Positions 7,092-8,229 of a stretch of DNA of 20,586 nucleotides are shown in pieces. Both the position numbers and the translations under genes were made by a program. Source of the stretch: a virus. Lineage: Duplodnaviria; Heunggongvirae; Uroviricota; Caudoviricetes. Location of the stretch: positions 1 to 20,586 of the IMG/VR virus record IMGVR_UViG_2563366976_000012, one strand, 5' to 3'. Every line of letters begins with the position of its first letter. The stretch's first letter is position 1. The notes beneath the pieces were generated by a model. That model was not told the DNA's origin and ran no database searches. It was given only the letters and a program-made list of their open reading frames with translations.

Positions 7092-7741
7092 GCCGCCATC
7101 TCCCTGACCAGTTTTTCCGCCTGCTGGCGAACCTGCGCCAGAAACGCCTCACCACATGCCTCAAGTTCATCGCGCCCTATGTAGCTGATTGCCGGTCCCT
7201 TCCAGGTCTTGTCGAAAACAGCAATAGCACCAGCGAAGAAAGCACCTGTTGGCACCTGCTTTTCGTCTTTCGGGATAAACCAGGCAGGCAGTTCAAAACC
7301 AATACGCCCGCGAATAAAAGCAATATGATCTGCATCTTCCGGCCACCACACTTCGCTGGTGGCAGCTTTGATCAGGAAAACATAGCGCCCGCCTTTATCA
7401 CGCATGGCACTGGCATGTTTCATGATGTAACGCATGCCGGTGATGTATTGCCCCTCATGCTGACTGGCGCGGCTGTACGGGGGATTACCAAAGGCAGCAC
7501 CTTTAAGCTCCGCAAGACGTTCAGACCAGTCATGCGCCAGCGCGTTGTCTTCCGCAGTGTAATACGCAGCACATTTGGCGTTATCACCGTCAGTGAACAG
7601 ATCCAGAACAAACGGGCCAAACAGGGTGTTAATTCCCCAGAAAATGTTGTCCGGCGTGCGCCACTGATCGCCCACTTCCTTCAGTTCATGGGCTGGTTTG
7701 TTCCGCAGTTCCACCAGCGCCTGGCAATATTTATTACTCAT
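7088..7741 (-). CDS. Phage DNA N6-adenine methyltransferase (Dam-type)
   Basis: Start at MSNKY (TAATG coupling with the upstream stop). Contains the NPPY catalytic motif (AAFGNPPYSRA) typical of N6-adenine methyltransferases. Confidence 0.8.
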   Translation of the reverse strand: MSNKYCQALVELRNKPAHELKEVGDQWRTPDNIFWGINTLFGPFVLDLFTDGDNAKCAAYYTAEDNALAHDWSERLAELKGAAFGNPPYSRASQHEGQYITGMRYIMKHASAMRDKGGRYVFLIKAATSEVWWPEDADHIAFIRGRIGFELPAWFIPKDEKQVPTGAFFAGAIAVFDKTWKGPAISYIGRDELEACGEAFLAQVRQQAEKLVREMAA

Positions 7742-8229
7742 TAAGCCCCCACGAAATTCCCTGACAGATACCACTCTTCACCCGATGCAGCGCGCTTGCT
7801 GCTTTTCTGTAAGCACTGCTCACGACGCGCCAGAAAATTGTTTCGTTCTGGCTGGGAGTGGCTTTCACGGAATGCCGCCATCCACACCGTTGCAGCACGA
7901 CGGTATAAGCCCCTGGACTCCAGTTCTTCAGCATGACGGGTCAGGCACAAAATCACCCAGGGGTCGTTAGTGCCGACATAGAAATTGCTCACAGGTATGG
8001 TTTCAAGAACAGGTTGCAGTTTCTCCTCCTGCGATATCTCAGCCTGGTGTGGGAAATGTCTGCGTGTTTTCCCTTCACAACGGTGAGCCACACGCCCACT
8101 CTGACGTAACTTGCTTGCTGACTGCAGTACGCGCTGCCGTGAGTAACCTGCAAAAGCATCCGCAATGTCTCCGGAAGTACAGCCCGGATGGGCTTCAATG
8201 AATTTCTGAACTTCATTCAAAAGACTCAT
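7741..8229 (-). CDS. Putative PerC-family (Pch-like) regulator with an N-terminal extension
   Basis: 163 aa from ATG at 8229. C-terminal LESRGLYRRAATVWMAAFRESHSQPERNNFLARREQCL fits the recalled PerC/Pch pattern LExKGLWRRAA..W......ER....RR..CL; the N-terminal ~60 aa are HTH-like. Confidence 0.5.
   Translation of the reverse strand: MSLLNEVQKFIEAHPGCTSGDIADAFAGYSRQRVLQSASKLRQSGRVAHRCEGKTRRHFPHQAEISQEEKLQPVLETIPVSNFYVGTNDPWVILCLTRHAEELESRGLYRRAATVWMAAFRESHSQPERNNFLARREQCLQKSSKRAASGEEWYLSGNFVGA

Follow-up and report, generated by a model that had tools for sequence, protein, structure and literature searches.

YfdN, a two-domain PerC-family protein encoded between the replication initiator and the adenine methyltransferase of a lambdoid prophage

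The yfdN-type gene and its orthologues

The DNA analysed here (the window, 20,586 nucleotides, comprising positions 1 to 20,586 of the Caudoviricetes record IMGVR_UViG_2563366976_000012) carries on its minus strand a yfdN-type gene for a two-domain protein of the PerC family. The gene is flanked by those of a replication initiator and an adenine methyltransferase, and this part of the locus contains the following features.

7741..8229, minus strand: yfdN-type gene encoding a 162-amino-acid (aa) two-domain PerC-family protein (open reading frame and translation; Pfam PerC match of 36.5 bits; PHROG 1324; match to K-12 yfdN)
7739..7743, minus strand: TAATG overlap of the yfdN stop and the methyltransferase start (direct reading of the sequence and translations of the open reading frames)
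7088..7741, minus strand: phage N6-adenine methyltransferase of the Dam family, 217 aa (Pfam PF05869, E 9.7e-46; PADLOC type II methyltransferase model)
8232..9173, minus strand: replication initiator, 313 aa (Pfam HTH_36; PHROG 391 'replication initiation O-like', E 1.3e-134)

The window gene shows 92.6% nucleotide identity to yfdN of the cryptic prophage CPS-53/KpLE1 of Escherichia coli K-12, and is the orthologue of that gene, carried by a lambdoid prophage. Of 5426 complete E. coli genomes, 2668 contain homologous DNA, and K-12 is one of them. Orthologues were also found in isolated or induced phages, namely SfII, SfIV, SfV (orf40), mEp460, phiSTEC1575-Stx2k, many phages encoding Shiga toxin (Stx) 2c, and Salmonella ST64B. 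RefSeq names yfdN a "PerC family transcriptional regulator", and the protein matches PHROG 1324, labelled "transcriptional activator", over its full length (E 7.6e-75). Moreover, Uhlich et al. 2018 termed yfdN 'the K12 unique PerC homologue' (PMC5931665). The gene, singled out in an earlier reading made from the DNA letters (the sequence-only reading) as one with an unusual N-terminal extension, is an ordinary one: it is K-12 yfdN, annotated by RefSeq as a PerC regulator and found in about half of the complete E. coli genomes. It is not new: it has an annotation, is very widespread, and is already counted among the PerC homologues in the literature.

Positions 1-12785 of the window differ by only 3 mismatches from an mlrA-adjacent prophage of E. 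coli 23CRST038 (NZ_AP045810). Past position 12785 the ungapped comparison with the same prophage fails, the cause being either an indel or an early-left region that differs. The integrase gene forms the end of the window (19300-20586 region).

The minus-strand open reading frame of yfdN extends over 7741..8229 if read from an ATG codon and over 7741..8235 if read from GTG, the latter being the start called by RefSeq (164 aa). The ATG at 8229 has the Shine-Dalgarno sequence AGGGGG 5 nucleotides upstream, and distant YfdN homologues start with MSL...; for both reasons it is the likelier start, and the coordinates 7741-8229 of the sequence-only reading are slightly better than the 164-aa call. 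The translational coupling of yfdN to the methyltransferase through TAATG, which had been proposed in the same reading, was confirmed by the sequence and the open reading frames: on the minus strand, GGGGGCTTAATGAGT, the yfdN TAA (7743-7741) and the methyltransferase ATG (7741-7739) have one base in common. The upstream coupling is of the same kind, with the initiator TGA at 8234-8232 and the yfdN ATG (8229) beginning 2 nucleotides later.

Domain structure of YfdN

The structure of YfdN was modelled with AlphaFold2 on a 42-sequence family alignment, giving a mean predicted local distance difference test (pLDDT) score of 79.5. The model and the alignment divide the protein into four parts.

8050..8229, minus strand: winged helix-turn-helix, residues 1-60 (AlphaFold2 helices 3-13, 19-25 and 31-44 and hairpin 47-60, pLDDT 84-90)
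7963..8049, minus strand: linker, residues 61-89, predicted disordered (pLDDT 42-44 for residues 61-80, 70 for 81-90 and <50 for 64-82)
7801..7962, minus strand: three-helix module of PerC/ANR type, residues 90-143 (AlphaFold2 helices 90-105, 109-122 and 126-143, pLDDT 92-96)
7744..7800, minus strand: C-terminal tail, residues 144-162, with the motif W-Y-L-S/A-G-x-Y/F-V-G (alignment; pLDDT low)

The N-terminal domain has the topology H-H-H-E-E, which corresponds to a three-helix bundle with a beta-hairpin wing. Foldseek related this domain to the winged helices of ArsR/SmtB, MarR and BlaI/MecI, with a root-mean-square deviation of 1.7-2.9 A over 58-67 residues; the matches have a probability of 1.0 but E-values of only 0.01-0.1. 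A few family members match MarR_2 or Penicillinase_R weakly. These results agree with the helix-turn-helix-like N-terminal extension of ~60 residues that had been noticed in the letters: ~95 residues precede the PerC core, 60 of which belong to the folded helix-turn-helix domain. The linker that joins the two domains is of variable length and sequence among the aligned proteins. Sequence searches gave no match in the PDB even at E <= 10, and a Foldseek search of the PDB with the complete model gave winged-helix matches only, with nothing specific for the small C-terminal bundle. PADLOC found no defence-system match for YfdN. Likewise, YfdN has no loader match in Pfam, NCBIfam or PHROG, and its predicted fold is a winged helix followed by three helices, not an AAA+ domain.

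The C-terminal half contains the PerC motif as AEELESRGLYRRAATVWMAAFRESHSQPERNNFLARREQCL. Its assignment to the PerC family in the sequence-only reading was upheld by Pfam, where PF06069 matches residues 98-149 with 36.5 bits (gathering cut-off 22.6; E 6.1e-9), and 41 of the 42 family members match the same model; the match is far stronger than chance would produce. BLASTP comparisons, which had been suggested there as a further check, gave matches to the Pch proteins PchE (38% over 52 aa, E 1e-9), PchA (36% over 50 aa, E 2e-7) and PchD (33% over 46 aa, E 1e-5) of strain Sakai. YfdN, PerC and Pch have in common the core LE-x-(K/R)-G-L-(Y/W)-RRAA-x-x-W ... ER ... RR-x-x-C, and in an alignment with PchA, PchE and other PerC-like proteins the positions A13, L16, G20, R24, A25 and C52 are invariant. 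In size, the protein departs from the single-domain form of ~90-104 aa that characterises PerC: it has 162 aa, including a 60-residue winged helix and a 30-residue linker.

The tail W-Y-L-S/A-G-x-Y/F-V-G is specific to the family, as it is present neither in PchA and PchE nor in PerC-like single-domain proteins; G157 and G161 are nearly invariant among the 42 members. A 78-aa version consisting of the PerC-like module and a YLAGNYVGEL tail, without the winged helix, was seen in 7 contigs (L048, L097, L107, L113, L143, L146 and L148; L numbers denote loci and contigs compared here), where it fills the slot of YfdN behind a Phg_2220_C-type initiator bearing the conserved tail described below.

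The replication initiator and its conserved tail

The initiator upstream of yfdN has an HTH_36 domain at its N-terminus, followed by a repeat linker, a domain 42% identical to the C-terminal domain of lambda O, and, at its very end, a tail that is conserved. Two features lie within its gene.

8235..8312, minus strand: last 26 residues of the initiator, with the tail EKREDPYFKASYDNVDYSQIPEGFRG (locus comparisons; overlap with the ribosome-binding site from the sequence)
8801..8864, no strand assigned: 15-bp tandem repeat, 4.3 copies, consensus CAGATTTTGACGGGT, in the region coding for the initiator linker (Tandem Repeats Finder)

The repeat at 8801-8864 is iteron-like and is the probable replication origin of the phage, an assignment made by analogy with lambda, whose ori iterons are situated in gene O. 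The final codons of the tail (GFRG = ...AGGGGG) serve also as the Shine-Dalgarno sequence of yfdN. The tail, (V)D(Y/N)xx(I/V)PxGFR(G/S), is the sole feature common to initiators with at least three different bodies, which are of the lambda-O-C-like, Phg_2220_C and 272-aa types (loci including L005, L010, L028, L030, L031 and L238); lambda O is without it. A YfdN-like gene lies immediately downstream in 117 of the 120 viral contigs that have the tail at the end of an open reading frame. In L236 the initiator is tail-less, and the C-terminal motif of the YfdN-like protein paired with it is degenerate.

The order of initiator, YfdN-like gene with overlapping start, adenine methyltransferase, and then RusA, DUF968 and Q is kept by two-domain relatives with 25-47% identity from Citrobacter, Lelliottia, Franconibacter and metagenomes. 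In L238 (5232-5894) an MT-A70 enzyme takes the place of Dam after the YfdN-like gene, a non-homologous swap that leaves the gene order intact. No P, DnaC or DnaB gene was found in the replication module or its flanks (up to ~6 kb per side) at any locus examined, plaque-forming phages included. When the lambda-O-C-like domain was used to scan for homologues, every sequence recovered was 100% identical to the window type.

A genome scan with a 10-sequence alignment, in which the PerC core served as the pattern, recovered mostly single-domain PerC-like proteins rather than proteins of YfdN type. In Erwinia, Pantoea, Kluyvera, Enterobacter and E. albertii, such proteins of 89-103 aa are encoded just behind a primase-helicase (Toprim+DUF927 or D5-like), often together with a single-stranded DNA-binding protein (SSB) or a ProQ/FinO protein, and ahead of the structural genes (L013, L017, L019 and L022). 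The gene of PchE in Sakai element Sp7 (L034 23600-27044) likewise comes last in a replication operon. Taken as a whole, the PerC family thus seems to be tied to the ends of replication operons, and the presence of single-domain members behind the self-sufficient replication genes of other prophages and of satellite-like elements indicates that a late-early accessory slot is typical of the family.

Natural deletions of yfdN

Several viral contigs have lost yfdN. In phage cdtI (AB285204; L239 4501-4593) the initiator and its tail are followed by a 30-aa in-frame remnant of yfdN, MSLLNEVQKFIEAHPGCTSGDIADAFYVGD, and then by dam. The deletion of this type spans about residues 28-157 of YfdN and leaves an open reading frame of 30-32 aa; it was found in 5 of the 120 viral contigs (L079, L088, L136, L140 and L155), and in others yfdN was lost or disrupted in a different way. 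One Stx2a prophage has an insertion sequence inside yfdN. The 30-32-aa remnant still overlaps the start of dam through TAATG, which suggests that coupling to dam is kept even where YfdN is lost. Judged from these sequences, the deletion in cdtI argues against an essential role of YfdN in replication.

Position in the early operon and neighbouring genes

12081..12109, minus strand: PR-like promoter between the cI-like repressor and cro-like genes (promoter scan; gene order from the near-identical prophage)

On the minus strand, the operon runs from the PR-like promoter through a cro-like gene, YmfL, DUF4222, two Rha/Ash genes, the O-like initiator, yfdN and the Dam methyltransferase, and continues with a LexA-DNA-binding-domain protein, RusA, KilA-N, DUF968 and Q. 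Open reading frames, annotation and domain matches thus bear out the earlier placement of yfdN within the replication/nin part of the early operon. A promoter scan covering 6300-12200 found no promoter-like site between the PR-like promoter (12109-12081) and yfdN, the sole sigma-70-like site upstream on this strand being the PR-like one. Because of this, yfdN is expected to be expressed only upon prophage induction or infection, and should be silent in a repressed lysogen. The SfV record (U82619.2) annotates -35 and -10 signals of dam inside orf40; the scan of the window showed none there.

The 108-aa protein encoded after dam (6765-7091, minus strand) consists of a LexA DNA-binding domain without a peptidase domain, and is kept in most of the related loci. 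The two Rha+Ash genes that immediately precede the initiator gene (9170-10051 and 10048-10887, minus strand) are tandem paralogues, an arrangement that fits the Rha-containing 'Eru' replication-region types of Stx phages (PMC8951638). Downstream of the Q antiterminator lies a tRNA cluster, Arg-tct, Arg-tcg and Met-cat (1714-1963, minus strand). This is the site where Stx phages carry tRNAs and stx; no toxin is annotated there in the near-identical prophage.

Proposed function of YfdN and alternative explanations

The explanation that we favour, while giving doubt equal weight, is that YfdN is a non-essential early phage regulator in which a DNA-tethered module of PerC/ANR type opposes silencing of the H-NS type or another regulator. 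Homology, fold and operon position are taken from the results above, and from them we infer the activity, the partner and the target. The protein would be made after induction or infection from the PR-like promoter, and its winged helix would provide or guide the binding to DNA. The PerC/ANR module would act as in its characterised relatives, by antagonising H-NS-type silencing or another regulator. Pch activates LEE1, part of the LEE (locus of enterocyte effacement), only under silencing by H-NS/StpA/Hha, and lowers the binding of H-NS in vivo and in vitro (PMC4764244). Aar, a member of the ANR family, consists of three helices without a DNA-binding domain and binds AggR and H-NS directly (PMC4983702, PMC5570504). 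The benefit to the phage would be counter-silencing of phage or host genes in lytic growth, not specific control of the LEE.

As a finding, the gene itself matters little, since it is annotated and very common. Its function is of wider interest: half of the complete E. coli genomes carry a two-domain PerC/ANR protein fixed between a replication initiator and an adenine methylase, and the carriers include Stx-converting phages and phages converting for cytolethal distending toxin (CDT) that are without their own helicase loader. Knowledge of the function would shed light on what the PerC/Pch/ANR family did ancestrally, and would show whether prophage induction frees another H-NS antagonist in the cell.

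Several observations weigh against a DNA-tethered anti-silencer. A generic role of this kind does not explain why yfdN adjoins the initiator so strictly, why the initiator tail is conserved, or why a methyltransferase gene is the constant neighbour. DNA binding by the winged helix is not assured, because the recognition helix is not conserved across the family. Moreover, of the 90 positions of the PerC model only 5-56 are matched, so the C-terminal third of PerC/Pch is absent, and the absent segment may be the part that contacts DNA or H-NS. The ANR model (NF033650) matches residues 96-141 with 22.1 bits, below the NCBIfam cut-off of 32; as 29 of the 42 family members match it (E <= 0.01, best 4e-9) and YfdN itself scores under the threshold, the results point to homology at the superfamily level rather than to ANR membership. 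The searchable literature holds no experiment on YfdN function, and papers that mention yfdN treat the gene as uncharacterised. Finally, the dispensability of yfdN leans on phage cdtI, which is reportedly infective; the title of Asakura et al. 2007 describes it as an inducible prophage.

The pairing of initiator tail and YfdN bears on two further explanations. The C-terminal domain of lambda O binds P. In lambda the O C-terminus travels with P, and the co-occurrence of tail and YfdN resembles this case, hence the idea that YfdN is a partner of the initiator. It would then be a replication accessory in the 'P slot', with its PerC-like module or its winged helix docked on the initiator tail, and would help to bring host DnaB/DnaC to the origin of the phage, or to regulate them there, in place of a lambda-P-type loader. 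The absence of P, DnaC and DnaB from the loci examined is consistent with this, as are the invariable overlap of the yfdN start with the initiator stop codon, the tail shared by otherwise different initiator bodies with a YfdN-like gene almost always next to it, the lambda-O-like C-terminal domain of the window initiator, and the tail-less L236 initiator paired with a YfdN-like protein of degenerate C-terminal motif. Nevertheless, we consider it unlikely. The initiator and its tail are kept in cdtI, where yfdN is nearly all deleted in frame, and in other contigs yfdN is missing or disrupted. Since tail and yfdN adjoin each other on the DNA, their co-occurrence is not independent evidence, and conservation of the tail may partly reflect the ribosome-binding site of yfdN. 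AlphaFold2 applied to a natural frameshift fusion of the C-terminal part of the initiator, the tail and YfdN (P0212) gave a pLDDT of 37-59 for the tail, a weak result from a shallow and unpaired alignment. Single-domain PerC relatives follow self-sufficient primase-helicases that have no need of a loader. Moreover, hhalign of YfdN against lambda P gave a probability of 0.1%; YfdN is thus not a lambda-P-type helicase loader, and a loader is what would have told against the PerC interpretation of the sequence-only reading. Decidedly unlikely, too, is that the initiator, YfdN and the adenine methyltransferase form a functional unit in which the PerC/ANR module and the WYLxGxYVG tail bind the initiator peptide (V)DYxx(I/V)PxGFR(G/S) and modulate origin firing or helicase recruitment. 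In phages without their own helicase loader, such a unit might for example clear H-NS or SeqA from the origin. If this were true, the ancestral function of the PerC family would be the control of phage replication, and the virulence regulators PerC and Pch would have been recruited later.

Other explanations start from the PerC homology or from the neighbouring genes. YfdN has the PerC core motif in common with PchA/B/C, and genes of its type are present in Stx2c, Stx2a and Stx2k phages as well as in a CDT phage background; it could therefore be a prophage-encoded virulence regulator that activates ler and the LEE in a LEE-bearing host, as PerC and PchA/B/C do. Uhlich et al. 2018 removed yfdN from their MG1655-based ler::lacZ reporter strain, so cross-activation was considered possible (PMC5931665); no assay of YfdN on ler was found in the literature. 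However, the gene's presence in nearly half of the complete E. coli genomes and its abundance in LEE-free strains, K-12 among them, mean that it is not tied to the LEE, and ler is strongly activated by the group-1 Pch proteins (PchA/B/C) only, with no activation by PchD and less than 2-fold by PchE (PMC5931665). In addition, YfdN is without the C-terminal segment of Pch/PerC, and its gene, for which no separate promoter-like site was seen, belongs to an operon under repressor control, whereas pchA is a moron with an orientation of its own, situated close to the lysis genes. An activator of this kind is very unlikely, and a role at the LEE is unlikely to be the main function of YfdN. It is equally hard to credit YfdN as a partner or regulator of the adjacent adenine methyltransferase, acting on the translation or activity of dam or tying the methylation state to the use of the origin. 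An adenine methyltransferase gene does follow the YfdN-like gene at nearly all loci (once of MT-A70 type), and the TAATG overlap is kept even in the cdtI remnant. Nevertheless, SfIV and some contigs (L007 and L010) have yfdN without the methyltransferase and cdtI has dam without a functional yfdN, and therefore neither gene needs the other for its retention. We know of no precedent for PerC/ANR proteins acting on methyltransferases. Resistance to exclusion in the manner of lambda Ren, whose gene sits directly after P in the equivalent slot behind the replication genes, is extremely unlikely. Residues 3-65 of YfdN match PHROG 142, 'Ren-like exclusion protein' (E 0.006), and hhalign aligns the N-terminal domain with residues 3-49 of lambda Ren; however, the hhalign probability is only 10.6%, the likeness may be just that of a shared winged-helix fold, and Ren is without a PerC module.

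Comparison with known systems

The closest counterparts of the window gene are its orthologues SfV orf40, ST64B Sb43, mEp460_044 and K-12 YfdN, which have the same length, the same two domains and the same slot between initiator and dam. At the protein level the window YfdN is 87-89% identical to those of SfV and mEp460 and 65% identical to that of ST64B. In K-12 the initiator and dam genes beside yfdN are truncated pseudogenes, whereas the window module is intact; otherwise there is no difference of substance. In lambda, P occupies the same slot after an O-like initiator but has no detectable homology to YfdN, and the resemblance to lambda Ren is weak and at the level of the fold only.

PchA/B/C of enterohaemorrhagic E. 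coli O157:H7 and PerC of enteropathogenic E. coli have a core of ~50 residues in common with YfdN (36% identity to PchA), and all of these proteins are encoded on mobile elements. However, Pch and PerC, at 89-104 aa, consist of a single domain, have neither a winged helix nor the WYLSGxFVG tail, and contain a C-terminal FGD..KA...MG...FR segment that YfdN lacks. The position of the genes differs as well, pchA being a moron in the opposite orientation close to the Sp4 lysis genes and yfdN a member of the early operon. PchE and PchD of O157:H7 Sakai, with 38% and 33% identity over the PerC core, are again single-domain proteins (90 and 89 aa) on other types of element. PchE is nevertheless encoded at the end of a replication operon like YfdN, behind primase and SSB in Sp7, and its reported effect is on curli and flagella, not on ler. 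The ANR family, represented by Aar of enteroaggregative E. coli, has a three-helix module with the signature A..hE+....A...W..A, as in YfdN. ANR proteins stand alone, are smaller than 10 kDa and usually have an AraC-family gene as partner, whereas YfdN is an 18-kDa protein with an added winged helix.

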